Shown: positions 2-33,036 of the stretch, one piece after another
How the letters are laid out: the number at the start of each line of letters is the position of its first letter
Numbering within the stretch: position 1 is the first letter of the stretch
Assembly: GCA_023231475.1 (NCBI GenBank)
Contig: JALJEE010003119.1
Span: 1-33,036, forward strand
Direction of reading: 5' to 3'
Origin: Seison nebaliae
Taxonomy: Eukaryota
Length of the DNA stretch: 33,036 nt
Notes under the pieces: generated by a model
What the model saw: the letters and a program-made list of their open reading frames with translations, nothing else
The model's database searches: none
What the model was told of the DNA's origin: nothing
Translations under genes and position numbers: made by a program

Positions 2-448
2 ATCATATATGGCGAGCAAACATTAGACGCAGAAAACGTTCATCAACAACTCAACGAGAATATTAACTATGAAAAATCGGAAAACACCTTAAGTAAAAGA
101 AATACAATCGACATCGAAAACATACGGGTAGAAGCAACAGAAGGAGAATCAATCCTGTCCGAGAAGAACGAAGAAAGAAAAAATACAGACTCCCGAGATA
201 AGAACAAGGCAACAAGGGACGATATGATGAAGTTAAAGGCGAGTAAACCACCAGAAGCAGATGAGTTTTGTTTCTGTCACAAGCCAGCCGGAACCAAGAG
301 CTATATCAAATGTGATAACGAGACGTGTCCCATTCAATGAATCCACAAAAGTTGCGCGAAGGTAAAAGGATTCGTCCGGACAAAGTGGTATTGTTCCATT
401 CAATGTAGAGGCCGCCAATATGTGGATGGAAGATGTGTAGACATGTAA
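2..448 (+). pseudogene. 5'-truncated ORF ending in an ING-type PHD finger, interrupted by an in-frame TGA (probable pseudogene or transposon-derived)
   Basis: Frame 2 reads ...EFCFCHKPAGTKSYIKCDNETCPIQ*IHKSCAKVKGFVRTKWYCSIQC. This matches the ING PHD pattern (YCxC..CDNxxCPIEWFHxxC..KWYC) with TGA at 338-340 in the conserved Trp position. TAA at 446-448. Confidence 0.65.
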
Positions 449-975
449 GAAGTAAAGATAGAGAAGCATGACAGCTCATGTGTAAAAAAGGAATGCAACG
501 AAGAATTCACACGCAGTTCAGTTAATATAAAAGAAGAAACTATTACGGGGACCACTTCGTTTTCTATTATTCAACTATATTTTCTGTTTCGACATAAATA
601 AATATTATTTATATAAACGGACCTTTACATATGTATAAAGCTGGACGGAAACGAATTTTTAGCAAGTTAGGATATCACGACTTTATCTATGAAATTTTAA
701 TGTTCATTATTCACGTGATATCCATATTTTTCTGCGATATTATGTATAAAAAGTGAATAGAATAATACCTAAAAAAGTGAACACAGATGCAACATCAGTT
801 ATCGACTGTTAAGAGTTAAAAGAAAAAATAAAATTTGTTAGTCTAAAAAATAAGACCGTAACCCAGAGCTTTGAAATTGAATAATAGTACAAAAATTATC
901 TTATTTACGAAGAAAAATATTGTAGATGTATTATTGTCATGGCTACCGGTCGCATGGAGATATTCTCTATTACGG

Positions 976-3389
976 ATGATTATGAATACAGTAGAAGGAG
1001 GAGACAATCTGTCAAATTTATTGGCGGAAACAATACAACAAGAAAGAAGGAGAACTGATCAATACAAAAGTTTATATGAACAATTAAAGATTGAATTGGA
1101 AAAGTTTTCCTTAAATTTTTAAAATATATTCCTTACTACTCTGTTGAAAAAGTTTACGGGATAACCACCAGCGATTAGAAGATGAACTACAGAATAGTGA
1201 AAACGAAAAGAAAATGTTATCGGAAAAATTTAAAAAATGTTTAGAAACTCAACAAGAAGAATGTGACAGATTAAGAATAGATAATGATTCTTTGCAACAG
1301 GATGTTTGGACTGATGAACGACTACGACTCGAGTTCCACGAAATGGAAAACCAAGCGGCTCATAAGTGGAAACTAGAGATAGAATCGTTGAAAAAGATAA
1401 TTCATCAACTTGAAAACGAGTTGGAAGACAAGGGAAAATTTCATGATAAGCAGATGAACGATGAAATTGGTAAAAGAAAACGTCTCGCAGAGGAACTTGA
1501 AGATGCTCAAAATAAATTTAACGAAAATCTTAACAACTTAGTTGAACAACAGAAACATCAACAACAAAAGTATTTAGAACATCAACTGATCGAAGCACAA
1601 AAACTGCATGATGACGCCACAGGAAGTACGAGTGAAATTGTCTTAAAATTACAAAAGAAACTTCAGATAAGTGAAGAAAGAATGCAAACACTCAAACTCG
1701 AAAAAGACCAACTTCTATTGGAGAAGTTGGAAGGAGAAGATCAATTAAATGTATTAGAAAGAAGAATACAGCATATCAGTAAAGATCAACATCGTGATTT
1801 CGAAGGATTAATGAGTGAGAATTCGCATCAGAAAGATATAGTAATGAAATTAAAAATTGAAATTGATGAATCTCGAAATGAGATTACACAACTTCGAAAA
1901 CAATTAACACAAAGACAATTACAAATTGAGGATTTACATTTGGAAAAAGATAAAATCGGACAAGAACTCAAACAACAGCAATTACATAATGCGATAGATG
2001 TTGATGATAAACTGGAAACAATTAGGAATGAATCAGAGTTGTATAAGAAAAAATTAGGAAGTTTAAAATTTTTAAATTATTTTTTATTTTTTAATTTACT
2101 TCCAGGCGAGGAAGATAAGAATAAGCGTCTTTTAAAGAATATAGACCAAAGAGATAAAATGATGACGACTATTGATCAGGAATGGAATAAACAATACAAA
2201 CAACTACAAGAAAAAGAATGGAGTCGTGCTGCTCAATTGGAAGCAGAGAAAATTCAACTCGATAATGACAAAATTGAATTGATTAAAGAAAATCAGGAAT
2301 TGAAGAATGAATTGGAATTGGGAAACAACACATTAAAAAAAAAAGTATTGCAAATTGAAACTGAGAACGAAACATATCAATGTCGAATAAAAGATTTACA
2401 GTTTATTTTTTCTCTCATATTATTCGTTCAACATTATTTCATTTTCAGAGAAGAATTAACGTTGAAAGAAGTTGAGTTAAATAATTTGAATGATAATCAG
2501 AAGAATTTCATCAAACTGGAACATGAAATACGGAAGAAGAATTTAGAAATCGATGAATGTCGAAATATTGAAAATGAACTTCAACGACTTAATACTCTTC
2601 TGATGAATAAAATTAAAATATTGGAAGAGCAAAAACCGGAATCGGGAAAAGTACAACAAATTATCCAATACGATCAATCAACACAAAATATGAGAAGTGA
2701 ATTCGAGAAAATAATAGAGCAGCAACGAAAGGAAATAAAGAAAATCAAAACCGAGAAAAAAAAAGCTCTTCAATTACTAAAAAAAACGTTCGGTAAATAT
2801 CAAGAAAAATTGAATGAAAAGAGTTCTGAAAAGTTTCAATAATTTAATTTATTTTAATTCAAATCTAATAATTCAATTTTATTCAAGTCATACCTTTAAT
2901 GAGTCTATGGATAAGTTGAAAGACCTACAAAAAAGACATCGACAATTTCGACAACTTCTTCAAAATCCTCCAACCTCATTTAATACCGTCAATGACTTTG
3001 ATTATAATATCAATGATATGAAGGACAAAGAATTGGATTTGAAATTAAATTTATTAAGTGGAAGAATGCATAATTTGGAAAATCATCAAAATATTTATTT
3101 AGATCGTTTACAATCAAACGAAACCGTCAAATATGGAATTAGTCGGCCTTCCACCAGATCTCATTCTCAACGACGTTTCTCGTCAGACACTCCAACTCCT
3201 GAATTGATGTCGGCCATTTCATTCTCTGATGAAATTTCCACTAAAGGAAAATATTCTCGACGTGCGAAATCTTCTGAGAAACAATTTTTAAGTCCTATTT
3301 CAGAGAGAAGTTATTTGTCAAACCGAATACCAATCGATCCAACTGTTAGTCTCATCTCACCATTGACATCAACGAAACCATCGAATTAA
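976..3389 (+). CDS. CEP83: Centrosomal protein CEP83/CCDC41-like coiled-coil protein (at least 5 exons)
   Basis: N-terminus ERRRTDQYKSLYEQLKIELENLRDNHQRLEDELQNSENEKKMLSEKF resembles the CEP83 N-terminus (ERLRCEHHKANYQTLKAEH..LQNEL). Frame-consistent introns at 1104-1152, 2061-2105, 2401-2448 and 2833-2887. The start is uncertain: a possible extra exon 787-814 splices in frame to 926. Confidence 0.7.
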
Positions 3390-3715
3390 CTAAAGTGTGA
3401 AAAGAATAATTATAATTGTGGAACGTTAAATCAAAATCGTTGACTATAAAACTTTCTTTAGTAGTAGATCAGTAAGACTAATCGAACTTTAAATGTTATA
3501 TAATCATTAAAATTCATAAAAATTATTTCATCATAAAAATTTGATATGATAATATGAAATGGAAATATTACTAACTATTTATGATTTAATAAAATATCTT
3601 CATTTTCTTGAAATTACGTTCTGATCCTTCGTTTAATCATCTACAATAGAATTTGGAAAATAAATTAATTAGAAAAATGTTCACTATTTTATATTTCTCA
3701 TTCATTAAATTTAAT

Positions 3716-3803
3716 TATTCAGTTGCCTTATTAAAAGGACAAAATTTTACTTTTAAAATCATATTACTTCTCATACTGGGGCGGTAATGTGTTCATCATT
3801 TGA
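3716..3803 (-). ncRNA. Box C/D snoRNA, U31/snR67-type guide for LSU rRNA P-loop Gm (yeast Gm2619, E. coli G2251 equivalent), copy 2
   Basis: On the minus strand: C box ATGATGA (3793-3799), guide TACCGCCCCAGT complementary to the conserved LSU sequence ACUGGGGCGGUA, D' box ATGA, D box CTGA (3719-3722). The +5 rule gives the second G of UGGGG. Confidence 0.88.
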
Positions 3804-3980
3804 AAGAAATAAAAAATTAAAATCAATTAATATTAACGTTTAAATTTGCTCGTTCATACCATCCATCCCATCTGAAATTCTCTATTCGCATCTTCAGTCG
3901 AATTCCATCTAAAATAAAAATAGAGATATGTAAAATATTGGTATATACTAAAATGGGAAAATATCGAGAAATAAGTGAAA

Positions 3981-4073
3981 TAATCAGATCCAATACATTT
4001 GTATTGGACGAAAATACTTTTAAAATCTTAGAAAATTTCCTCATACTGGGGCGGTATAATTATCATCATATTT
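3981..4073 (-). ncRNA. Box C/D snoRNA, U31/snR67-type guide, copy 1
   Basis: C box ATGATGA (4063-4069), identical 12-nt guide plus ATGA D' box, GATTTTAAAAGTA shared with copy 2, internal hairpin TCCAATAC-AAAT-GTATTGGA, D box CTGA (3984-3987). Confidence 0.88.
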
Positions 4074-4309
4074 AACTAATAGTCCAAAAAGAAGCAAAGT
4101 TCAGTTAATAATAACCATTAGAAATTTGACTGTTACTTTCATCAAATCTAAAAAAGAGAAATAAAATATCGTAAAAAAATTTAAAAACAATGTTCATCAA
4201 AAGTGTCCGTTAAGGTGAGAATGATATTGTAAATAAATTTTTTATTTGATGAATATAATTAAAAAGATATTATAAGGTTGTTGTTCTACATTCTATTCGT
4301 CAAATAGAT

Positions 4310-4798
<489 letters not shown>

Positions 4799-5557
4799 TG
4801 TTGATTAGAAAGATACTAAAGAAAAGATTTAACACAATATCTAATTTGAATGAAATATAAGATCAGTAAAAGAACTCTAATTCGAAATAAGAAAAATGTA
4901 TAAATAAGTTACAGAAATAACTTCTTCTGCAGCAACAAATCTCTTTCACACACACGAGGCAGCGATATTAATTCATAGACGAACCATAAAATCGTCAGAA
5001 GTTATTAAAAGATTGTACTGGAAACATTAATATCATTAAACGTTCAAAAATTTAGCTTTGATTCAATGCTGCTAAATAATAAGAAAATGCAATGACAAAA
5101 TAGTTTAAGCTTAAGATTAAAATTTTTTAAATTTTTAAAATCAATCCGTTACATGAAATGTCAGATACCAAATTAACTACATGTTCAAATTTTAAATGCA
5201 GAAAAATACTTCTGTACTAATAGGTATTTCGTCGTTAGTTTTTCTTGAATAATTCGAGGACGATAAAAAATTGAAATGAAGTTCAAATTTTAAAGTTTAA
5301 ATTAATCTGTTTTGTTTTATATAGAGAATTAATAAATTGGTATGAATATGATTTCTTTTAATTAATTAAGAAAATATAACTATATAATATGTTTATAGGA
5401 GCGGAGGAAGAAATTAATCGGAAAAAAAACTTTCATATTATATTTCAGGAATGAATATTGTATAAGAGAAATGGAGTTGTTGAATGAGTAGATATAATGG
5501 CGAAATAAGAAACGTTATGATAATAGATGGACTTTTCGATGGAAAAGAAAATACTGT

Positions 5558-7324
5558 TCAATTTGCCATTTTATTGACGTACATTATTAAAGGAATGTCC
5601 TTACCATTTGATTGAATATTATTTTTTTTGGTGGGTTCCTGTTCTTTAGTACCGTCAGCAAGATTGAGACGTGAAAATTCTTCGTGATCTCCATTGAAAT
5701 GAGCAATTCTCCTTCTATTGTACTTCGTATCTTCTGTCGCTCCACAGTAGATTAAAGTAGAGAAACGAAGACCATTGAATTCATGAACGAATGTTAAAAG
5801 GAAGAAAGTGTAGAAGACGATTGTCATCCATTCGAAGACTGCACCGAATTTATTGCAAACCGTATAGAATTGAATAGACGATTTATCAGCATATTGCTCT
5901 TTAATGTTATTAAAATTATCTGCAGCAGTAGTAATGTTGATGGGTTGACGGAATAGATTGATTGAACCCAAAATATTTGGAGAATTCTTTGTTGGAGAAG
6001 TAATATCCCAGAGCGTATCAGTATAATGAATTAAATTTGTCATATACCAATATGCTTCATCCGGATGCCACTCGTTCGGTATAAGACGTTTCGGAGCTTC
6101 CAATATATTATACTCGATCAATTTCGTCCATAAGAAACATACGTAAGTGCCCACCATACAAACGACACTACCGAAATTTATAAGAATTCTTATGAATTTC
6201 ACTCGCAAATGCCAATTAACTCGATCAGGTTCGTGCAAATGTCTCATACGTAAATAGGCAGTATAACGATGATGGTAGTAACTGGCCACTTCGTCAGCTC
6301 GACCACAACCAAAATTGCAATCTTTATCTCCCGCCTGATGAGATTGAAATGATATTCAATGTAATTTTAAAGAAAAACAAACACGTCGTACATGTTTAAT
6401 ATTAGTGCTAAATGTATGATCTCTTTCTGTTTCAACTGTCAATTGATGTTGTATATCCTTATTAATGTGTTTGAGATTTCTTTTTAAATTGATCCGTTTT
6501 TGTCGAATTTTATCATAATTGGCAATGTTTTGGGGTGGATGCCAAGTAATTATGAGATGTAAAACAAATATGGCAGTACCGGAATTGAAGGCCATTGTCA
6601 CACCCAAATAATGAATAAGTGGTAATTCATTTTTCTAAAAATTTCAATATTCGAATTTTTAAATTGGAATGAAATTGAAATGAAACTTGAAAATTTCCAA
6701 AAATCGTTACTCCAATAAATGTTACGAGAGACAACATATGACAAATGGAATTCATTATCTTGAATCTCTTTTTGAGATTTAATGCTTGAACATATTTATA
6801 CCGGAAATATAAAGTCATTAATTCTAAAACGATTTTCCAAAAATGAAAATTGATTAAATTTGAAATGTAAAGAAATTTAACGCATCAATGCAGTTATGCA
6901 AACGAATTCACTAAAAATGGCATTTTCGGGTGGGAACATTGCCGTTTCACTGTACATTTTGGAATGACTTAAAAATATTTATAATAAATGAAAAAAACCT
7001 GATAAATGGGAAACCGAGCCAATTGATATGACCTTGAAAACACGATACAGCATATGGAACTACGGCCGCTGTAAATGTTGTTATTGCTGTGGCAATTGGT
7101 AACCATCTCATATCACGAAATAGCCAACAACACCAACAGAAACAGAATTCATTTTCACCATAATCATCGTCATCGTCAGTTTCAGCCCACATATCTGTGT
7201 TGAATAATGGCTGCATAGCAGAAGTAGCATTGTTTGTTGAACCATTAGAATCGATTTGAGATTGCCTTTGATTATTATTCTCGTACGTATCCATATCGTC
7301 GGTGTTGTTGTTGCTGTTAATCAT
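5558..7324 (-). CDS. DRAM/TMEM150 (Frag1/DRAM/Sfk1 family) multi-pass membrane protein (5 exons)
   Basis: Spliced product contains PFISETAMFPPENAIF, YFRYKYV, GNFQKNELPLIHYLGVTMAF and AVFEW..FYTFFLLTFVHEF, which are family motifs. Four frame-consistent GTT introns. Confidence 0.85.
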
Positions 7325-9584
7325 TCTCGTAAATTTTTCGTCGTTATAAAAGATCTTCTTATATCTTTTGAGTTATGATGTCGATAAAGAAATTTGGGGC
7401 ATATACGGTCAAAAGGCCCATCCCATCTTTTCATTATAAAAATTTTTATAATCATTCCAGAGAAAAAGAGAAAGAGTATTATAAATGCTCCCTCATCATA
7501 AGTCCGATTTCTTTCTCCGATTCATTTAAATAAAATATGAACGAGAAAAAACATATGAACTTTTATGGAGAATGATGAACATTGTCCAAACATTAAAAAA
7601 GTTTCAATTGATCAGTCATTCAAATTAAAATGACAATAATTTCTCATATTCGATTATACGATAGAAAATAATCGAATAGAAAATTCTGATTAGTTATTAA
7701 TTAAGCATGACATAATAAGTATACAATAGTCATATGTATAATAATGGTTTTTTCTTTTTTAAATTAGAAAAAGAGTTAAAAGTAATAAAGTAAACTAGTT
7801 GAACGTATGTGATACCTAAAACAGTGTTGTTTTTTTGTTGAATCGGACTATAGAATGTGGGAAGATATACATCTAACATACTGATCATTTACTATAACAT
7901 TAGGCATATAGTCGCTAAACGGATGGGAGAGAAGAGGAGTTATAAAAATTTAATTTATCTTCAACAAAGAGAGTTTTGTCCAATGGAAGGTAAGAGAGAA
8001 CTCGCAATCAGTCTCTTTTTTGACAATACGAAAGGAAAGATAACATAAAGAATAGAGTAGGAGAGATAATAAAAATAATTTAACTGTGAAGGCAATGATC
8101 ATATTAAAGAAACAGAGAGTTCTCTTCAAACTGAGGGGAAGTATGTCTACTGTTCACTCTTCTCTTGTGGGAAGACAACGAAGGTCGATGTTAGAAAAAG
8201 AAAGTTGAATCAGGCGGCCTTCTCACTTTCTTTTAAACGTTTTCTCCCCAACTTTGACGTAATCATTCCATGCTAACATTTCTCGTCAGGTATGATAGTA
8301 TGAAATTTTTTTGTTGATTCCTCTCATTTTTTAATGATTATCCCCATTATGATTTTTTCCTAACGTGTTTCGATTTTCGTGTTTTTGGGAATTGGACGTC
8401 TTTTGAGAAACGAATGTACGAAGACGTTTAGAGATACATGATAGATTAGTAAGAAATTTGTGAAGGTGAAAAAGAGAGAGATTAGAAGAATGATAAACAA
8501 CAGCGTTCGTTGTCAATATGTTGAGTGTTCATTGGTGAGAAGACGAATGAATCCCAAAAAATTCAACTTAACAAAATTTGTAAAATTGATGAAATTTGAA
8601 TAATTAGAAATGGAATTTTGAAATGATTCGAAGATATTTTAAAGAATTCAAATTATAAATCGACAGTCACACTATAAACTGTTACTCAACATTCTCCTAG
8701 ATGATAACTGACACTTGTCCATCGCTCAATTCAGTATGTTTACTTAACTCTGCCGTTTAGACGGAACATGTCTTTGCATATGTTTAATATTCAAGAAATT
8801 TTGAAGGAGTTGTTATGTGTAAGAGTGTCTACTTGGTGATCATGTTCATCTTATATCACTCATTTAATGACCCAAGTTTTTAATTTTAACTTCTTACGTT
8901 AGATAAAATTCAAACATCAAATACTTTGAATGTCTAAAAATGAATCTTTCACTTCTACATTAACGAAGCATCATCATCCGTTGTCAGAATTGGGTGTTTA
9001 TGGTCGAACGTTTACCATTGCACCTCGAATGATCATATCATATTCAATATCATTTAATATTAGATAAATCTTTCTCATTTGTTTGCGTAAGACGATGAAT
9101 AAGAAATTGAAAATTATACAAGTCTGTCGCTTTTCTTATATATTCCTCTTGGTACACACGAAGAAATGAGAGTTAGTACTACAGTTTTATGAAGCAAAAG
9201 TAATCGGTCTTCATAAAAAGAAAAGTCATTTGATTTAATTACAAATAAATAATATTTCAAGTGGTTCTGATAAAAGAGGGCGCATTTGAAGATAGATAAT
9301 TTCGAAATGAAAACAAAAAATGGGCATTATAGAAACGAACATAAATATATACTGCGTTCAGAAATTTTAAAGACAATCATAATACATGGTAAACTTGAAA
9401 AGTCCAAATTTTTGTTCGGAAATTTAAAAAAGTCCGGTTATAAAACCGTTTAGAGTAGAAATAATTAAATTTATAATAATATTACCATTCATCAAAATTT
9501 AATTTATCAGAATGATCTAATGTGTATATGTAATCTTTGAAATGTTTATCTCACTAAACACATTCCTCCTTTCAAAACGTAGTT

Positions 9585-10509
9585 CTAATTGTTGAATGTT
9601 GAGGACGAAGGACTATCGAGAACAGAATTCTTTTCTAATCTTTTCGATAATTTTGATTCAGCTGAAATGGGTAAAGTTGATTTGAATTGATGAATTTTTA
9701 ATGTTTTGTTGTATTTCATTTGCTGATTTCGTTGAAGGTCCTTTTTCTTAATATCGATTCGACGACCATCCATATTATAAAAGATTGCACGATAAATACG
9801 CGGATTTTTCGGCTTCTCCAACTTCGACTTAAATGGTTTCTTTAACGTTCTTCCTTTCTGCAAATTCGATGCTGAGTAACGCGAATAAGAGTTTTGGTAA
9901 TTTCTTTTCTTCGTTTGTTTTCCTTCCAACCCATCATTCGTCTCTGATCGGATACGACGACCATTCGCATCGTATAAAGTCAAAGAAGTTAAAGCCTTTT
10001 TAGGAATTTGATTTCGCTGTTGTGCTATGATATCCTCATAACGACGACACAACATTTTCCTTTGCTTATCATCTAAGTTCTCTCCTCGTTTCAAATCATT
10101 TTCGTTCGTTATAATTCGACCATTCATGTCACAATTTACGGCACGACCTTTCCTGTTATGGCAATTTTCATCGTCATCATGGAAATCACTACGACTATTT
10201 ATTCCGTTCATTTTCATTCCATTTTTATAGTGAGATCCATATCTGTTCCTTAAATTATTGAGACTGTCATTGGTTGGAAAATTATCATTATCAAAATTCG
10301 GATTATCATTATTGAGTGAATTATCATTATTCAAACCATGATTTCTATTATTTGAATTATTGTCATTATTGAAATTATTATCATTGTTGTTGGGATAATT
10401 ATTATTATTAATATTTTGGTTGCTGTTGGGCTGATTATTATTATTGTTATTGTTGTTGCTGTTGTGATAATTATTATTATTATTATTATTATTGTGCTTG
10501 CTGTTGTAC

Positions 10510-10546
<37 letters not shown>

Positions 10547-12326
10547 CTTCCGAATAGTCATTACGGAAAGTTAAATTATTATGAGCAAATGAAGATTTTG
10601 GAGAATAATGAAAATTATCATCATATGATTCATTCATCAGTTGCTTTTCATTTTGCCGATTATTGATTGCTAAATTTTTTGCATTCAATTGATTCAATGA
10701 TGAATACTTCATTTGATATTTGGAGTTTGGATCATTCATTGGACCCAAATACGAATGTCTCATATCATTTTTTGTTCCTGTTTTGTCCGATTTATTTCGA
10801 GTGTCCATTGTTGTTACACTTCGAACGATATCATCACCCATATTGGAGCGATTAAATAAAGGCGTTAAATAAACTTTCGGTTGCACTGGATAATTCAATT
10901 TCTGTCCGGGAATAACTACGGATTGACGTTCTTTTTCTGAAACATTTTGACAATACAAATTAAAATTTGGTTTGGATTCGGAAGTTTCCTCCGCTGGTTT
11001 CTTTACTAATTTATTATCAATCAAGTGTTCATCCAGTTTCAATTTTTTTGAAACTAATTTTTCTGGCCTACATAATTCATTGTCCTCATCCAAAAATCTA
11101 CCATTAATATCACAAGCTCTTGGTTTCCTTTTACCTTTCTTCTTTTTCTTACGTTTTTCGACTGGTTCTTCAGTTTCTGTCGGCTTTTTCGATTGAACTC
11201 TTTCCGGTTTATCTTCATTTGATGATTCAATTGGAGATTCATGTACGGATGGCGGTTTTTGGATAATAAAATTTCTTTCGGATTCCACCGACATTGGAGT
11301 TGCAGCTATCAAACAGAAGGAGAAGAAATCGTATTCGAATTTAATTTAAAAAAAGTTGAGTTTAACTTTTCTGTCTTATTAATTCTTTCTCATCATCAAC
11401 ATTCTTATCTATCATAATAAATATTTATCAATAATCATTAAATTTGAAAAATAACTTCGACAGCATTTACAGCATTTGTGAGGGCAACAACAACAAAATA
11501 CAATTAGCAATATAATAGCTAATAACGCCAATGCACCGAGAATTCCAGCTATAATATAAATGGTTTCGTTGCCTAATGAAAATTATAAAATATTTGAATA
11601 TGAAAGAAAAAATTATTTTGAGAACTTAATCCGGATTTTGTCGTTGCTGTTGTGGAGAGTGTTGTGGTGGTGGTAGTAGTAGTTGTAGTAGTGGTAGTTG
11701 TTGTAGTAGTAGTTGTGGTGGTGGTTGTAGTCGTCGTAGTAGTTGAAGTGGTACTAGTACAAATAAAATCGAGATTCGGTACAGAACCTGCCGCAAATAC
11801 AGTTGGGTTTGGTTGAGCAAATGTTTGTGGACAAGAGTAGTCACATGCATCATCTTCTGGTATTTGGAAAATTTCATTTGTTTCCACAATTTCAATTCGG
11901 ATCTGAAAAAGAAATTTTAAATTTATAATAAACATAATCAAATCGAACTTTATCATAACACCAATTATCAGCTGCATCTACATCAACTCTTATATTTGTA
12001 ATTGTTCCAAATAGATTTCGTGCCGTTCCTTCCAACTCATTTACTGTGTTATATGAAAAAATATTCGCTCCATTTAAGTCGTTCGCAGCACCGTGGAAAG
12101 TAAACGTTTTACTTTTACTCGATCCTTCAATGACAATATGAACTTCGTTTAAGGAGTCAGCATCATTTTTGGCGATACTGGTGAGAATTGTAAATTTTAA
12201 GTTAATATCTTTTCAATATTAGCAGTAAGTGAAAGAAGTTAAAATAAAAAAATGAATGTAACCGATTGTGTGATGAAGATAGAATTGACATAGAATTATA
12301 AGTAAATATATCAGTCTATATTCCAT
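9585..12326 (-). CDS. Type I membrane protein: signal peptide, PLAT/LH2-like domain, poly-Thr stalk, TM helix, Cys cluster, long Asn-rich cytoplasmic tail (6 exons)
   Basis: Spliced sequence MEYRLIYLLIILCQFYLHHTIDINLKFTILTS..EVHIVIEG..FGTITNIRVDVDAADNWCYDKIRIEIV, then a Thr run, then IYIIAGILGALALLAIILLIVFCCCCPHKCCKCCR, joined to the 575-aa ORF. Five phase-consistent GTT introns. The PLAT call is by motif resemblance only. Confidence 0.75.
10310..10545. repeat. (TTA/TTG)n trinucleotide low-complexity tract encoding poly-Asn
   Basis: Runs of ttattatta inside the 575-aa ORF. Confidence 0.9.
11640..11760. repeat. (GTN)n tract encoding the poly-Thr mucin-like stalk
   Basis: gtagtagttgtagtagtggt...; translates to about 30 Thr on the minus strand. 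Confidence 0.9.
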
Positions 12327-13062
12327 AATAAGTCACATATCATATCTACGGAAATCTAATATTGACGAGAAGGAATCATAATGTTGCTAAAATTATTATT
12401 AACGATATTGATGGGAATGGAAGAAATAATGCTCGATAAGATCAATAACAAATTTGTTTAGAGTAAAACTTTAAATTAAGAGAGAAAAGGTCATTTTCGT
12501 TTATTGTTGAGATTTTGTAAACGAATATGTCCAAATATTCTCAATTTCTAAGAGCTTCTTACGAACAAGTTTATGATTGTTTCATGAAATTTTTTTGAAG
12601 TATTAATAAACGATACACACTTCATCCAAATAATGTAAATAGTGGGGAAATATGGTAGCGAGTCCTCTGGACATCGTTTGCACGACTTGCAGCAATATGA
12701 AGTGAGGAGGAAAAGTTATTTTGAGGAAGTCGTCAATCGTCTTGTTTTATAAAAAATATTCAAATTCAACAATGTCTACGGACAAGGAATAGAGTATGTA
12801 AAACGAATAAAGATGGATGACGTCGAATTGGAATGGATTCCAAAATATATCGTTGACAAAATAAAAAGGGAAATTCACAATTTTAACTGAAGTTAAATGA
12901 TTAAATAAGGTAGAGGATCGATGCATATCAATATCTACATTCTTCTTCATTCCATTTTTCAAGTGGGACTACAATAGAATATGAGAAATAATGTTTTTGT
13001 TAGTTAATTTATTTATGTTTAGGACATTTATTCCCATTATTTCTTTAGATTTCTTCCAATCT

Positions 13063-23055: not shown

Positions 23056-25535
23056 ACAGTATTCATTTATGTTTTATTCCTGATATGACACATGACACAA
23101 ATTAAATTTATAGATTTATTAGTTTCGATAACTGTTTTCTTCAAAATAATGATAATGGCAAATACTGCATCTAAATTTCTTAGTAATTTTGTTCGCCTAT
23201 TTTCTTGGAACACAGATTGTGAGCGTTTGATTCTCCGACATCGTCATTTATACATTAATTGAAATAAACAATTTTTACGTTTTTGATTTGCAAAATATTA
23301 ATTCCGAAATTGGTACAAAAATTTCCGAAAACTTATTTTACACTAATAGATGTAAGAATACAGAATAACGACCTTTAACATAGGAAAATCAACGGTGGGC
23401 AATGTTATTAGAAAATAAAAATTAAAGACGATGAAAGGAAGACGATAATGGAAGAAAATGGAGTTGGGGAAGGACGAATTCAACAAAGAAATCGGTATTT
23501 GTTTCCAGTTCTTAGCGAAAACTAGGCTAATTTTTGCGTGTACTTAAAATCTTGAAAAAAATGTGTCATAACATTTCGTCTAACTTTTAATTATTTTAAC
23601 TAATCTACTTTTAAAATTTGAGAAAGACTAATATTCTAATGATTTTATTGATGCTAATGTAATGCATGCTCGATAAAAGTAATCACAGAGTTATAACTCA
23701 TAACTTATAAGGTTTTTTAGAACATGTCGATCAATGGATCGCACATGTTGTAGATAGAGTCTATCTGATAGACATCATAATATCTATTGCTTTAGAAGTT
23801 GCTAATAGAAATTTAATCTTACATTTTCGGAAATGTAACAAAAACAATTTATTTATAACCTTTCTGTCTTAATTTCAACATTTTAAATTATCTTCGTTAA
23901 CCGGAATTCTCAAAAATCTTCGGTGTTTATAATCCTGACTTGTTAATAATTTTGCATTGCAAACATTGCATAAAATTAGTTAAACTTTCGTGATATTCTG
24001 TCCATATGTAAACTTTAGTTTGCATATTTCTGGACATAATCTTCGTTTATCTATAATATCCTCACAAGGTTTTAAGAGAATGGTTACCAATGCATAATTA
24101 AAAATCAGCTGCATAAAGAAAGCGAGTGAATCGGTATTGAAAGATGTAAACGTCGTCAAGATCAGGCAGAATTTATGAAAAATTATTTAATAAGTTTTCC
24201 CATCAGTCTATATAAGAAGTTTTTTGAATTATAATTATTGAGTTGTTGAAGATCATTAGTTGTATTTCAGTATTTATATTTTGCATTTGTTTAATTAATT
24301 GCGTTCGTTGACCTTTTCATAATATGTTTGTTCTATGTTGGAATATCGTGATCGATTGAAAGTTTCTCAAATTTAATCTTGAAATGATATACATAAAGAA
24401 TGATGAATAAAACAGAAGAAAAAGGATAAAAATCAATAGAAAAAAAAATCGATAACATGTTGGCATGCCAATTGAAAATGAGTTGCAGACAAAAGATCAT
24501 AAAAGTTTCACGAATCAGGAAGTATCTCAAAAAAAAGTCAAAAAGTATATCAATAAACCGCACAATCGACACAATCCATAAGGTATTGTCATTAACATAA
24601 GTTGTTTCTAATATTACATTGCTGTTTTGCTTTGATAAAATAATAATCACAAAGTTTTACTTTAAAATATCCGAAGTATTTAATATTAATTCAACTGATT
24701 TAAAAATAAATGCATTTGTTACGTACTATTAGAAATATTAAAAACTATGTTATTATATTCTTCAAACCGCCAGTATTAATGATGTATTGATATCATTATT
24801 ATAAACAGTACACTAATATTATATAGTCAAAAATGTGATAAATGACATTATAGAATTTCTGATGAAATACGTTCGAAATTCCACAATACTTATTTTCTTT
24901 TTATATTGAAGTATATTCGATTGGGCATTTGTAATAACATCATTGATAAAGAGTAACCATCTACAATCTGTCAGTTTGTTTTTTGTCCTTCCTTACCTTC
25001 TCTCCAGACTATAGGCAATGGTGAATTTGGGGGAAATGATAAAAATTTCTAGGACGGAATGTATTCGTACTTGAAAATTAAACAGGAAGAAATGGAAAGC
25101 ATATTGATTCATAGAAATGAAAATGTGTGCTATATGTACACAGTATCTTAAGAAACGTAATATAATTTTATATGAATATATAGATATATTTGCATCAAAT
25201 GATGAGATGTATTTGATGGCGACCCTTTATAAATTATTAAAAAAATAAAAAGGAAACTTTATATTTTCCCTAATCCATATTGGTAAATAATGATTGCATA
25301 AATTATTCTACATTCATTAAAAGACAGTCATTAGTTATTTTGACCGGTGGCAATGTATTATTTTAAAATAAGGAGAGAACAACTTCATAACGGAAAATTT
25401 TTTAAAAAATATTTATTCTAACTTCTCACCAACATTGCGAAGAAACAAATTATATGACAAACACATTTTTCTCATAATAATAATTCTTGTTTTATTGTTG
25501 AAGAATTTCATTACATTCAATTAGATTTAACATCA

Positions 25536-27154
25536 ATGCTTTCATTCCAGAAGCACTTGAAGAATTGTTATGAATTATACAAGTTGTATGAAGTGGAATT
25601 GAACAAATATTTGGATGATGTAGAACCGGAAATATATTTTCAGGTGAACGAACGTGATTCAAATCGACTAGATCGTGATTATGCTCGTAAGAGTTACAAT
25701 AATTACGAATTCTCACATATTCTATCCCATGTGTTGGATGCGCGATCACTTTTCACAAGTTTCCATTTTTCACTCTCATTCAAATATCGAATGAATTCTC
25801 CCATTAGAGCAAGGTTTAGAATTGTATCAAAATGCCTTCCGTATGACAATACAAGAACGACAAACAAATATCAATGTACCAAATATTCTTTTCAAGAGAA
25901 TAATTTCCTATTTGTTCGTGAAACGGAACAATATCCCTTATTACGGTCTAAAACCGTTACCAAACAGATTATTCTCATTGGAATCTCAATTTCGCGATTT
26001 CGATGATGAGATTGAGAATGAGAAACGTAATGATTATGAAGGATTCATTAATCAACATTCCGTTGCTTATCGTCCACAAACACACGATGAATTAATGGAA
26101 ATGGATGAAAGAACTGATAGTTTAAGTAAAATGAGCAATTTTGTACCATCTTCAAGAAGTGGTTATTCAATGAGAACAGTAGAAATGTTTATTAAATTTT
26201 TTCATATTTTCAAATATATTAAACATTTCATTATCAATCCATTACAATGTAGATTATCGGTAGCGGAAAATTTTCGTTTGGAGAAAATTATTAAAAGTAA
26301 TCTTCGTCGATATCATCGTGATCCAATGGAATCGAATCGATTGAATTCTTATGATTCAAGAGATAATTTTAGACGAACGGCAAATAGTTTAAGTAAATCG
26401 GAAAATAATCTTTCGAAATATCAAAGGAATAATTATGACGATATTAAAGAACAAACAATAAAATTTATTCAAATTTTCAGTGATTGGGTCATAGCTATTT
26501 GTCTGAAAGATTGGTCGCTTGGTAAATGTTACGCAATTAATTATCCACTCCAAGCAATGTTCACCGGAAAGAATCAGAAACAAAGTTCCAAATTATTGAA
26601 AGGCAATATCGATACGATTTTCAAAAGACAAAATAAAGTTGACATAATCATAACGTCGATCCTTTTGTAGTTTTCTTTTTAAGATTTATTTGGTTCAATT
26701 CTGGTTATCAACAGGTGAAGCGACGCCTCCGTTCAGAAAAATCGTTGAATTATGTTTCTTAAAAATATTAGCAATAACGAATCGTCTCGATTATCTTTCG
26801 AATAACGATGATTCATTAACAAAGAGATATGAGATTTCTATGCAACTTGTTAGTTTGCATCCATATGAAGATGGTTTAGAAATGCGTTCTTGGGAACTAA
26901 TGGATAATAATAATGAAAATTTAACTGAAGTTTTATTTATCCTTAAATAATTTTAGAAAATTATTTTTTTTCAGTTTTTCTCAACTGCCACACAATACAA
27001 TTTAGAATCGGCAACCGAAATTCTAGTGAATATTTTGAATAATAATGTAAAAATTTTGAAACGACTATCGAACGGACATTATGTGAATGATAATAATTCG
27101 TCAACATTACCCCCAATTAATCGAGGTCGCTCAGATCGAACTAAATGGGATTAG
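25536..27154 (+). CDS. Uncharacterised protein (5 exons)
   Basis: ORFs at 25536, 25822 and 26690 plus a final exon are joined in frame by four GTT..AG introns (GTTTCC, GTTTAT, GTTGAC, GTTTTA). Stop TAG at 27152-27154. No family recognised. Confidence 0.7.
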
Positions 27155-27393
27155 GAATTTTATTTGTGAATGCGCACTGTAGATGATCATGTAAATTTCT
27201 TATTCAATTCATTTCCTCTTTTTTCCATTTTGATGAGTATTAACTGAATAAATGAAATCATTTAAACAATACAACTGAATTGTCGATAAGGAATGGAATA
27301 GAAATAAATAAGGAGGAAATTGAAAATTTAAAAGTAGAACGAGTTTCTTATTGTTCAATCAATGAAATGATTTAGACTCGACACGAAATTCCA

Positions 27394-27759
27394 ATGAATA
27401 GACGACTTATATTCTTCTTGATATGTGTCATGTTGTTGAGCAACATTGACGTATGTCTCTCCAAATATATACCGAATCAATATGTTCCTTATGAGAAATA
27501 TGGGACAGATATGATAGCAAAAAGAAATGTGGTACAGAATGGCAATTTGCAAGAAGTTCGCGATGTACTTAACACAGCCATCTCTCACAATCCGATGATG
27601 CAACATATTGTCATGAACGAATTGAATCACAAACAAAAGAGATATGTCCCCTACATGAATGTTTCCCCACAACAAACGGAAGCAGAATACGCGAAATACA
27701 AACGTTTCATGGCGTATCTGAAAGAACTTTATCGACAACGTAAAAACATAAAAACATGA
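27394..27759 (+). CDS. Secreted prohormone/neuropeptide-precursor-like protein
   Basis: Signal peptide MNRRLIFFLICVMLLSNIDVCLS, three KR sites, and YVPY present twice. Confidence 0.7.
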   Translation: MNRRLIFFLICVMLLSNIDVCLSKYIPNQYVPYEKYGTDMIAKRNVVQNGNLQEVRDVLNTAISHNPMMQHIVMNELNHKQKRYVPYMNVSPQQTEAEYAKYKRFMAYLKELYRQRKNIKT

Positions 27760-27889
27760 GGCGGAAATTCCGGACGTCCATGTCCAATGTAAAATGAAAT
27801 CATTGCAAATTTGCACATTCATCATGACGAAACATCAGTCAATCTATTCTCAATTAGAACTAATGTTTCTGAAATAAAATTCAACTAAT

Positions 27890-28525
27890 TTAATTGTCTT
27901 TAGATTTTAAATAATCTTCGATTTTTTTCCGTTTTTCCATTCCTATTAAGAATTCTTCCATTTCTTTCTTTTTTTCTTCTTTCTGTTTCTCCAATACATC
28001 GGGTGGAGTATACATCGCTTTTCTTTCGTTAACTCTTTTAATTCCTGTTCGTCGATAATCAGATCTTTCTTCTAAAAATTGTCTTTTCGCTTCTTCTCTA
28101 AATTCTTCATCATCATAACTTATTAACAGATTTAAAAAGAAGATTAAATGGAAGATTAACGCATTAATTAAACATTTCTTCATTTTTGCAACTTCTTTCC
28201 GACATTTGAATACGACATATAATCCTGTCCTTCTAGCACAGAGTGCCCATTCTTTGAATGTAACATATAACAAAATATATGGAAAATATAAATGTTAATA
28301 CCTTCAACTTCATCGTAACAACGTCCTTCGTGTGCCATTTGTTTCATTTTTTGTGGTATACAAACATTCTCTTCTACTTTCCGTAAAGTTTTGTCATTGG
28401 GATCACCTTTCTTATGATATTACGTTTCGATTAAGAAGATAATTTATTAAACCTAATCCATGTGGTCCACCACCAGCTCCATCTGGTAAAATGGCCTTGT
28501 CCTTACTTTTCAACAATTCGAACAT
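27890..28525 (-). CDS. CMC1: COX assembly mitochondrial protein CMC1 (twin CX9C; 4 exons)
   Basis: Spliced GPHGLGDPNDKTLRKVEENVCIPQKMKQMAHEGRCYDEVEEWALCARRTGLYVVFKCRKEVAKMKKCLINAYDDEEFREEAKRQFLEERSDYRRTGI parallels CMC1. Confidence 0.9.
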
Positions 28526-29109
28526 ATTTTCCTTTTTTACATTTATGCCGAAAATTTAAGTTCAATTCAGATTAATTTTGCTATCAATCTTCAGTGATAA
28601 TGTTTCGGTTCCTAACTAAACTTGGTTGTTAAATAGCTTTTTCAATGTTTTATGACTAATACAATTAATATGAATTTGTATAGAATCATTAGTAGCAATG
28701 ATAGTACGTAGCGAAAGTTTAAAGCTTAACATGATCCGAGCGACTGTTACTACATTATTAGGTGTCATAATCAGTAGCGACATGTACATCCATTTGAAAG
28801 CTAATGGTTTCCATTTGGACTATGAAAAAATGGGTGGTAGAAAAAGAAAAAGATATTTGTCTAATATTAGTCCTACGAATAGTAGGACTCTAGAAAAAGA
28901 GATTTCGTCCTACCAGTAGAGATATTAGTCCTGGTCAAATCTGAGATAAGGAATAACGATCAAGAATCCTTTATGTTTAATTATTTTGAAAAAGTTATAA
29001 TATATTTCTCGTAAATTTACAAGATGTGACTTAAATTGAATCGTTTAATTTTCAACCAATTCAAAATATGAATAAACATATAACAAATATTTATTTAAAT
29101 TTAAATTTT

Positions 29110-29865
29110 TTATCCTTGTTTTGAACGGATAGCAGCACGTTTAGTAGTTGCTGCACGGAATCCCTTTTCAATTGCATTGATATAAGCACGACTTCGACAA
29201 GTCAGACATTCGATATATTGCAATCGTTCTTCTTTATTGAGAACGGTATTCATTCGTCCACAAGATCGACATTTGACGAACTCACCCACATATTTGATGA
29301 GAAGATTTTCAATATGATTTCCTTTAAATCTTCCTTTGATTACCAAACAGTTACCTTCATGACCACAAATATCGGCGGTTGTACCCAATTCGGCACGAAT
29401 AAATGATTCCAAATGACCACGATCTCGATTCAATTGTTTCGCACATTCGTCCAAATTAGCCACACCTGTTCGTCGAGTTCCCAACGACCAAACTTTTGGT
29501 GGTTTCAAGATCAATTTGGAACTGCCTTTCAAATCAGGATTATTTTTCTCTATTATTCCATATATTCTTTTAATTAATTCTTCATAAGTATAATCAGGTT
29601 CCTCCTCCAAATTCGGATCTTTCATAAATTTCTTTAAATATTCTGCCTGTGCTTCTGCCTTAACATTTTTCTCTCGTTCCAATCGTTTTTCTTTTTTCTA
29701 AATTTATTTCCATTTCAATGAGAATTACATCATAATAAAAAACAGATTGAGATCATTAACTTTTCCAAATTCGATTGTACCATCAATTCCATGTTTCTTT
29801 TCTTTCCTATCCTTCTTCTTCCTCTTCCCAAAATCAACTTTAACTTCTGTTTTGATATCACTCAT
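29110..29865 (-). CDS. EIF2S2: Translation initiation factor eIF2 beta subunit (2 coding exons)
   Basis: Lys-rich boxes, DYTYEELIKRIY, LKPPKV, HLESFIRAELGT, LVIKGRF, and the C4 zinc ribbon CRSC..CLTC. Confidence 0.95.
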
Positions 29866-30501
29866 TTTTGGACTTGCAATAAATATGATTTTTAAGTGTT
29901 TATTAATATATATTTCATTCCCCCTTCCCCTCCATGAATTAAGAAAAGAATATAAACGTCTTCAATCATTGCTAAGTTCATAGATCTTGAAAATTTAGCT
30001 TATTCTTTTCAACTTCAAATTATTCTTTTATTTCACAATTTATAATATTGCATTGTAAGATTAATTCTCACAATTGTCAGAGTTTTGTTGTTGGTAAAGG
30101 TTAAACTTTAAAAGACAGTTTAAAATCTGAAAAAGATGTTTAAATTAATATATCTTAATTAAAAACATGAAATATAATAGTAACATGTAGTTAAACGAAA
30201 CGTTAATAACAGTTCAATAAAAATTACACAATAATTAGATTCATATAACTATAGTAAATCTATAAAGTTTATTGATATAAGATAAGATAGATATATAATC
30301 TATAAAGATAGAGTTTGGTTTAAGTGTTAAATATTTCCAACTAAATCATTTTTGTTATTGTGGAGATTAATTAAACTGTTCCAAAATTAGTTTTAGTTTG
30401 ACTTACAAATAAGAAATGGTTGAGTTGACTGCTTCCAAAGTGTTTCGAATTAAAATTAAGCAACTTTTCTTTTCTTTTGACTTACTTATTTTGCTTAACT
30501 T

Positions 30502-31076
30502 ATGTTTCCTTTAATTTTAATTTATATGTTCTTCATTCCGTTTTGCCGAGGTTAGAATTTTAATGGACTTCTATTTCATCGATCATTGACTGTTCTTAAG
30601 GAATGACGAAAGCTTATGCCATCGAAGTAACTACTGCCGTCAATCGAAAATACCGACCACCCTGTTTCGCACTATCATGGACATGGGATGGACCAGGAAC
30701 TTGGAACAAAGTTCGTGTTCGATTATTTGATGTTCTTGATTCGAAAACTGATTGGGTTCCGGTGAAACATCTCGTCAAAGGTGCAACTACCACCGTAGTA
30801 GTAAAAGACTTATTGAAAGAGTTATCTCATATACAAATATCTTATCAACGGCCAGATAGCAAGCTCCGTTTTATTTCAAAATGTGACTATTGGAAATTAA
30901 ATCGAGTTATTATCAAACATTTTAATAATCAAATTATTTGTTCAACGAACTTGTTTAAATTAGCATTTCTCATCGAGCACAAGTTGGAAGGATCAAACAT
31001 CTTTTCTTTTCAAATATTTTCCGTAGTCATCCCAAATGTATATCTGATTTCTCTTTTCCTCAAAAATTATTCATAG
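30502..31076 (+). CDS. Secreted PLAT/LH2-like single-domain protein, paralogue 1 (3' end unresolved)
   Basis: Signal exon MFPLILIYMFFIPFCRG, intron 30551-30600, then YAIEVTTA..DGPGTWNKVRVRLFDVL..CDYWKLNR. Confidence 0.7.
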
Positions 31077-31186
31077 AAGTTTAGTAATTTGTGTGAAAAG
31101 TTTTTAGTAGTGTCTAAAAGACGAAATGTGAATTATATTTTCGCATTTTTTCTTTTTCTTTTATTCTTTCAGTCGACGACACCTTA

Positions 31187-31862
31187 ATGTTCCTTATCTT
31201 AATTTTAATTGCTTCTGTTCTACGATTTATATCCAGTTTCATCTTTTATTATTCCAATTCGAATAAAGTCATTTTAAGCGCTAACTAAATCTTATACAGT
31301 CGAAGTAACAACTGCCAATAACGATAATTATCGTCCGAGTTGTGGATTGATATCAGACCTATTTGACGGACCAGGAACATGGAACCAGATTTCTGTAAGA
31401 CTCTATGATGTTTTGGGATCACATACCGAATGGATTCCAATCCGTGAATTACATCGAGGTCACACATCTTCCGTTGTCATAAAAGATATCCTACGTGATC
31501 TCGATCATATAGAAATTTCCTATAGACGTCCAAGAAGTTTTTTCTATTTCTGGAAACGTTGTGATTTATGGAAATTACAGCGAGTTAATTTTCTTTCTAT
31601 TGAAATTTCAACTATTGTATAATATTTAAAATTTTCTATTCATTCCACTAATTTTATTGATTGACATTTTTAGATAATTGTTCGAGATCTCATTGATCAT
31701 AAAAGTTATGTGACGAAATGTAATTGCTGGTTCGATCGACAACATCATGTGGTTGATAGGAAGTTACATGAATTTACTCCTAAAGTCGATTCGGTAGATA
31801 ACACTTATGAAGGAGAAGATGAATCAGGATTATCCAGCATCTTATCATGGGCGGGTAAATAA
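31187..31862 (+). CDS. Secreted PLAT/LH2-like single-domain protein, paralogue 2 (3 exons)
   Basis: MFLILILIASVLRFISTLTKSYTVEVTTA..GPGTWNQISVRLYDVLGSHTEW..LHRG..LRDLDHIEI..WKLQRIIVRDLIDHKSYVTKCNCWFD follows the PLAT pattern. Two GTT introns. Confidence 0.78.
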
Positions 31863-32903: not shown

Positions 32904-33027
32904 GACATAAGAGCCACGAGACAAAAGAGCCACGGCACAAAAGAGCCACGGGACAAAAGAGCCATGGACAAAAGAGCCACGAGACAAAAGAGCCATGGAC
33001 AAAAGAGCCACGGACAAAAGAGCCACG
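32904..33027. repeat. Minisatellite of eight 15-16 bp units, consensus GACAAAAGAGCCAYG(R); possibly a subterminal repeat of a DNA transposon/MITE
   Basis: Eight directly abutting units with no spacers, preceded by the palindrome GACTCGAGTC. Confidence 0.9.
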
Positions 33028-33036
33028 CAGACTTTG

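Follow-up and report, generated by a model that had tools for sequence, protein, structure and literature searches.

Short Introns of a Seison nebaliae Contig Appear to Follow an AA|GUU Donor Code

Introduction

How might a spliceosome read intron starts in an animal whose introns do not open with the animal donor (5' splice-site) consensus? That consensus is among the most conserved signals of animals. How it might be altered where introns are numerous is a question raised here by a contig of the marine seisonid rotifer Seison nebaliae (GenBank JALJEE010003119.1; 33,036 nucleotides [nt]), which we analyzed in its entirety and call the window; this one 33-kb contig underlies all counts below. 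The genome it comes from is small (~46 Mb) and AT rich (31.9% guanine plus cytosine [GC]), has compact genes, and is represented by two lineages (PMC8351084). A first-pass annotation of the contig had read nearly all of its coding introns as beginning with GTT, mostly after an exon-terminal A, and had proposed that the spliceosome of this lineage may be rewired.

Donor Composition

Genes were rebuilt from three-frame displays, with only GT-AG ends considered. We placed 42 introns ourselves; the 43rd, the in-frame intron 16533-16489 of the prolyl-tRNA synthetase gene PARS2, was added after public protein record P0010, at a gap that homologues share. The resulting 43 coding introns in 12 genes, all GT-AG (the only class searched), give full open frames. 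In this curated set the median intron length is 49 nt (range 41-237), and five of the first 42 introns, as well as the added PARS2 intron, are in-frame without a stop. Intron position +3 is T in 40 of the 43, A in two, and G in one. The three donors that are not GTT (GTGAGT in ATP5MC, GTAACT in PARS2, and GTATTA in CMC1) are the same exceptions that the first-pass annotation had listed, and its counts of 40/43 GTT, 28 A and 8 G at the last exon base (-1), and seven G at +5 are all reproduced on the rebuilt introns.

The introns are T rich throughout, with T making up 0.487 of intron interiors and following 41% of all GTs in the window. Measured against these two backgrounds, the chance of seeing 39/42 GTT is p ~1e-9 and 2e-12, respectively, and unused GTs near the donors are GTT in just 23 of 56 cases (Fisher p 5e-8 versus real donors). 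At +4 the composition is T 19, A 17, C 6, and G 1; with T at only 19/43 there, the +3 T does not open a run of U, and a plain U-tract effect is rejected (T 93% at +3 versus 44% at +4 and 49% in the background). The exon side is also skewed. Position -1 is A in 28, G in 8, T in 5, and C in 2 of the 43 (A excess p=0.0002); for the 42-intron set the phase-matched expectation is 15.6 A and 7.9 G, so that pyrimidines are depleted (7/42 versus 18.6 expected) and G stands at expectation. A at -2 (28/43) is enriched as much as A at -1, and 23/43 donors read AA|GTT. The information content is 0.33 bits at -2, 0.29 at -1, 0.71 at +3, and 0.04 at +4 (bias ~0.05); the three informative positions form a contiguous block with the GU, and +4 to +10 lie near background. 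As read from the contig sequence, the donor code of Seison short introns is AA|GUU and not the animal G|GTAAG, which is surprising for an animal. Since 40/43 introns begin GTT, mostly after A, it is likely that the splicing machinery has been retuned to read such intron starts.

Some traces of the standard code are still present. G at +5 is retained weakly (p=0.02), and it tends to seesaw with the exon side, occurring in 5/15 donors without a -1 A versus 2/28 with one (p=0.04; one of several tests). Pairing with U1 in the canonical register, scored at -3, -2, and +4 to +6, is above null (p=0.003). The duplex of canonical U1 with the real donors averages -2.0 kcal/mol versus -14.0 for the consensus, with an area under the curve (AUC) of 0.63 against nearby unused GTs. 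An earlier statement that these donors pair at little beyond GU is thus right as to the weakness of the canonical U1 duplex and slightly overstated in view of the residual pairing. The U12-type donor motif, RTATCC, is found in 0/43 introns, and a U12-type origin is rejected.

The acceptors are weak, with a pyrimidine tract that holds little information. Position -3 of the acceptor is T in 19, C in 12, A in 11, and G in one intron (AAG 11, GAG 1). T is in excess at exon +2 (24/43 versus 12.6 expected), and exon +1 shows no preference for G; the 3' splice site may have been retuned too. Enrichment of branch-point motifs was sought with four motifs, none of which rose above shuffles (p 0.36-0.97), a comparison of low power in AT-rich introns.

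Robustness of the Donor Placement

A separate parse by dynamic programming, using only GT, AG, length, composition, and frame and no donor context, returned 37 introns, 32 of them GTT, and 35/37 of its donors are the same as the curated ones; this parser misparsed parts of a Cys-repeat gene and missed in-frame introns. Obligatory introns that have no alternative in-frame GT are GTT in 14/16 cases. In a worst case, in which any non-GTT in-frame GT within 30 nt is swapped in, 28/42 donors are still GTT (p=0.014). For PARS2, scoring against five non-Seison homologues places 9/9 introns above every alternative, by 2 to 46 units and in two cases narrowly, and the homologues prefer donor GTTCGT over an overlapping GTAGTT. 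Short homologues of CMC1 did not discriminate among placements of its introns 2 and 3 or favored other ones; introns of the Cys-rich gene are anchored by the gene's own internal repeats. The spliced models of PARS2, PGAP2, eIF2-beta, and CMC1 (17 introns, 15 GTT) are identical to predicted public protein records, which amounts to agreement and not to RNA proof. An eIF2-beta exon is 100% identical to SNEBB_006525, and two further genes of the window match SNEBB_006519 and SNEBB_006516.

As controls we used eight donors from four AT-rich short-intron metagenome loci (L017, L019, L033, and L047), whose introns are partly orthologous and so not independent. Read in the same way, they have T at +3 in 1/8 and G at +5 in 8/8. 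Six of 80 metagenome loci were inspected for introns, and L001 was excluded (one donor G|GTTAGT, 44% GC). We take the four control loci to be probably of bdelloid rotifers.

The artefact explanation holds that T-rich introns and reader bias together yield GTT, or that the true junctions lie elsewhere. It can draw on the facts that the junctions are predicted with GT-AG ends only, that some introns are in-frame without a stop, and that homologues do not favor the placements of CMC1 introns 2 and 3. It is opposed by the drop in T from +3 to +4, by the blind, forced, and worst-case counts, by the PARS2 placements that beat all alternatives, and by the control donors, and we regard it as very improbable. 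The non-standard donor code of the window contig is real, on predicted junctions, and we hold this with high confidence.

Reads and transcripts offer some further context. Four sequencing runs were examined over 14085-17130; contigs from three of them keep every intron, the fourth yielded none, and this says nothing on expression. In runs X1-X3 a rarer haplotype occurs besides the window sequence, at ~84% exon identity (31 differences in 196 bases; among the differences listed, 40 of 129), and is probably the other Seison nebaliae lineage. Alignments of this haplotype that reach five donors end at +3, +3, +3, +5, and +8, two donors of the Cys-rich gene being among the sites it aligns into; these end points are a weak hint that donor constraint may end at +3. 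Transcript gaps shorter than 100 nt, picked by eye among the rows listed of supplement 2 of PMC8351084, measure 42-92 nt (36 gaps), in agreement with intron lengths in the window. GMAP recorded 32/36 of these as deletions and not as introns, perhaps because a human splice model scores them weakly, a reading that is not used as evidence here; the window contig was not found among the transcript-mapping rows listed in that supplement.

Comparison with Known Systems

T at +3 is found in a few percent of donors in human and fly and in below about a quarter in Caenorhabditis elegans. Human donors fall into the classes AG//GUNNN (45.1%) and NN//GURAG (53.6%), which are reported to be separable in fly, worm, fish, and Arabidopsis as well (PMC11732430). 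Together these classes take up ~99% of human donors, whereas the Seison window has only 4/43 of the former and 1/43 of the latter; like both, its donors keep GT-AG ends, an A at -2, and a weak seesaw between the exon side and +5 G.

By analogy, the closest precedent for the window is the transformed donor of Entamoeba, which Seison would resemble in its working without being a member of that system. U1 of Entamoeba has changed to ACAAAC opposite GUUUGU(U), and U1 of Mastigamoeba has changed also (10.1101/2022.06.08.495308). Both Entamoeba and Seison have AT-rich genomes in which U replaces the +3 purine in nearly all introns (40/43 in Seison). Entamoeba, however, is intron poor and has a strict motif of 6-7 bases with +5 G, whereas Seison is an animal rich in introns (the window has 43 in 12 genes); only 2/43 of its donors read GTTTGT, +4 to +6 show almost no constraint, and the change extends to the exon side (AA). 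Among animals, the larvacean tunicate Fritillaria is likewise a lineage with a re-tuned major spliceosome; it escapes GT-AG by way of U2AF paralogues and N6-methyladenosine (m6A) changes, whereas Seison keeps GT-AG and alters the flanking code (PMC13326754).

The literature searched, with subscription journals outside the search, held no report of a GTT-type donor code in Seison or another animal. Seison papers retrieved with splicing terms include none on splice signals, going by titles and the starts of abstracts, and the passages found in PMC8351084, PMC10125929, and PMC7310846 contain nothing on donors. A pan-eukaryote intron survey includes Seison, in the parts available only as a name in a supplementary species list (PMC10639083), and usable +3 frequencies were not found in the available part of PMC10599564.

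Mechanism and Alternatives

The explanation we lean towards, at somewhat less than an even chance, is that the short introns are removed by the ordinary major spliceosome and that the donor-reading RNA, most likely the 5' end of U1, has changed to match AA|GUU. Recognition would begin with the intron as a whole, a short and U-rich segment bounded by GU and AG; a helix of five base pairs, spanning -2 to +3 in the normal register, would then set the site of the cut. Such a helix would need A at U1 position 6, opposite the +3 U, and U at position 9, opposite the -1 A and tolerant of G; its -1/-2 part could come from U5 loop 1 instead of U1. U6 would be unchanged and would still fall back on +5 G at donors with a weak exon side, and the change of donor code would have converted old introns and not only new ones. 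We infer this mechanism from the donors; within the window, an Rfam search found no spliceosomal small nuclear RNA (snRNA).

Several results point this way. GT/AG ends, length, and composition, used blind to frame and to donor motif, suffice to recover 26-33 of the 43 introns exactly, and adding +3 alters this by -1 to +3 (composition and motif were trained leaving one gene out; the length prior came from the same introns). A short U-rich unit therefore likely does most of the defining, and length-based intron definition, one of the options raised by the first-pass annotation, gains direct support. The depletion of pyrimidines at -1 with G at expectation is what an opposing U would give. The seesaw between -1 and +5 and the residual canonical pairing argue for a normal register, and this pairing, taken with the informative block at -2, -1, and +3, therefore favors a normal-register helix with an altered U1 or with its exon half supplied by U5. 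An altered U6 box, also suggested earlier, looks the least needed of the snRNA options because the seesaw is as expected of a normal ACAGA box. A U1 variant carrying A6 and U9 separates real donors from unused GTs with an AUC of 0.73, versus 0.63 for canonical U1.

A number of points weigh against a changed U1. The energy gain of the A6 plus U9 variant is circular, because the variant was designed from the same donors, and U1 with A6 alone fits worse than the canonical form (AUC 0.53). Atypical donors coexist with an unchanged U1 in Saccharomycotina, Giardia, Trichomonas, Thecamonas, and Mamiellales (10.1101/2022.06.08.495308), and the two U1 versions of Fritillaria have identical 5' ends, the authors invoking U2AF and m6A changes (PMC13326754). 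Any changed machinery would also have to splice the three non-GTT donors, of which G|GTGAGT is a textbook case; the seesaw was one among several tests made on the 43 sites; and the junctions are predicted. The larger claim would make Seison the first animal in which U1 has been re-coded, with AA|GUU genome-wide, U1 changed on both its exon- and intron-facing sides, and tens of thousands of old introns converted; we hold it to be rather doubtful.

Standard snRNAs could also suffice if U1 pairing were near-dispensable, with U-rich-binding proteins and a short fixed length defining the intron and with U6, U5 loop 1, and altered or lost factors (U1C, LUC7, SNRNP27K, and METTL16) selecting the +3 U and the exon A's. 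The frame-free recovery of most introns without a donor motif fits this as well, as does the tunicate precedent of Fritillaria (PMC13326754). G44 of U6, which could wobble-pair with the +3 U, contacts +3 (PMC9803359), and Roy and Bowser point out that the standard U6 ACAGA could form better pairing with GUUUGU (10.1101/2022.06.08.495308). The preference for +4 A is lost (17 A, 19 T), as in the pattern of METTL16/SNRNP27K loss (PMC11732430), and Seison is reported to lack ~35% of the metazoan BUSCO genes (PMC8351084). Yet a weakened U6 side leads to AG//GU in the species described, and here AG exon ends number only 4/43; relaxed recognition alone leaves the 93% requirement for a new base unexplained, and the G44-U wobble is our own suggestion. 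Weighing both sides, we see standard snRNAs as a plausible, though less probable, account.

A standard U1 shifted by +1, so that U10 faces -1 A, C9 faces +1 G, and A7 faces +3 U, would need no snRNA change at all. This single shift explains both the -1 A and the +3 U, donors average the same number of pairs in either register (4.31 versus 4.30), and shifted registers are proven for rare human sites (PMC4856993). The rest of the motif is missing, however: G at +6 occurs in 1/43 donors, GTTNNGT in 1/43, and -2 is A and not C. Pairing at -2 and +4 to +7 equals null in the shifted register (p=0.27), whereas canonical pairing is above it, and the displaced AAGU of the proven bulge or loop registers, used by ~1.5% of human sites, is absent from Seison donors (PMC4856993). 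As neither the downstream motif nor the -2 pairing is there, the shifted register is rejected as the main mechanism, and we consider it unlikely. GTT could also have arrived as the end of transposon-derived (Introner-type) insertions in a recent wave, which would fit the many introns of PARS2 (nine). The introns, however, resemble one another no more than shuffles do (top score 39, against shuffle maxima of 29-42), terminal inverted repeats are absent, and AG or GT target duplications are seen in 4 and 1 of the 43. At both its ends, CMC1 exon 2 matches exon boundaries of three homologous frames (P0021-P0023), so that the GTT donor of intron 1 occupies an intron site that other organisms have as well; no relatives turned up when metagenomes were scanned with CMC1. 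With no families, terminal repeats, or target duplications among the 43 introns of this one contig, an Introner origin is rejected and appears the most improbable of the explanations considered.

Implications

The Entamoeba preprint sets two routes to donor change against each other, selective loss and a co-evolution that follows the loss of introns (10.1101/2022.06.08.495308). If true, a re-coded U1 in Seison would mean that co-evolution of snRNA and splice site needs no prior intron loss. As an animal with many introns whose genome and RNA sequencing data are public (PMC8351084), Seison would serve as a test case, and it offers a natural test of whether U1, U5, or U6 sets the preferences at -1 and +3. 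Splice models trained on human data may mishandle its genome.

Intron-Bearing Genes of the Window

The 43 introns are distributed over both strands. A coiled-coil gene (976..3389, +), which has no Pfam match, holds introns 1104-1152, 2061-2105, 2401-2448, and 2833-2887, all A|GTTT and two of them in-frame without a stop. ATP5MC (4310..4798, -; Pfam ATP-synt_C) has intron 4762-4722, whose G|GTGAGT is the one GTRAG donor of the 43, and intron 4613-4568 (A|GTTTTT). All four introns of the Frag1/PGAP2-family gene (5558..7324, -; identical to record P0018) are GTT (6998-6950, 6881-6824, 6686-6635, and 6382-6335), as are the five of a predicted secreted or transmembrane Thr-rich protein (9585..12326, -), placed by frame continuity only (12262-12209, 11948-11903, 11625-11573, 11455-11409, and 11366-11306). 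The Cys-rich gene (13063..15187, -) has four repeats, which we presume to be Ly6/three-finger-like, and six GTT introns (14988-14945, 14835-14778, 14486-14423, 14134-14092, 13321-13275, and 13165-13079).

PARS2 (15364..17124, -; P0010) has nine introns, eight of them GTT: 17037-16979, 16797-16755, 16677-16618 (GTAACT), 16533-16489, 16307-16249, 16151-16105, 15995-15951, 15740-15694, and 15480-15436. IMMT/mitofilin (17303..19502, -; Pfam Mitofilin) has introns 18634-18398 and 18314-18266, both A|GTTA. A gene to which no name could be given (25536..27154, +) has four GTT introns placed by frame continuity only (25759-25807; 26187-26252, in-frame without a stop; 26638-26683; and 26930-26974). CMC1 (27890..28525, -; P0019) has introns 28452-28407 (G|GTTTAA), 28301-28252 (G|GTATTA), and 28160-28119 (C|GTTAAT), and eIF2-beta (29110..29865, -; P0001) has one, 29760-29698 (A|GTTAAT). 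Two tandem genes at 30502..31862 (+), which we take to be PLAT-like, contain introns 30551-30600, 31236-31278, and 31584-31673, all GTT and placed by paralogue comparison and frame. At 30906-31076 (+) in the first of these, an A|GTT stands where the paralogue has an intron and the frame stays open; it was left out of the count.

Other Features of the Contig

Downstream of ATP5MC lies a predicted non-coding host of small nucleolar RNAs (snoRNAs; 3641..4188, -), with introns 4188-4148, 4115-3909, and 3837-3641, all GTT; they were placed by eye without a frame anchor and stand outside the 43. Its predicted introns enclose two SNORD31-like box C/D snoRNAs (3750-3806 and 4022-4075, -), whose matches score 30.7 and 29 bits, under the gathering score of 40. 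The C and D boxes at 18478-18596 (-), within the 237-nt intron of IMMT, mark a candidate snoRNA, for which Rfam gave no match at E<=1. A transfer RNA (tRNA)-like gene at 20294-20388 (-), whose variable arm is long and whose anticodon arm is irregular, was assigned no anticodon by ARAGORN.

The frame at 2-600 (+) has a Cys/His pattern that we take to be PHD-finger-like and an in-frame TGA at 338-340; it is probably a pseudogene or a transposon piece. Decayed reverse-transcriptase-like fragments in broken frames, with what is presumably a YADD-type motif, extend over 20600-21900 (+). The 121-residue product of a single-exon gene at 27394-27759 (+) is hydrophobic at its N-terminus and contains KR sites, and we read it as possibly neuropeptide-precursor-like; in the protein collection it is a singleton. 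A short tandem repeat array occupies 32915-33030, at the end of the contig.

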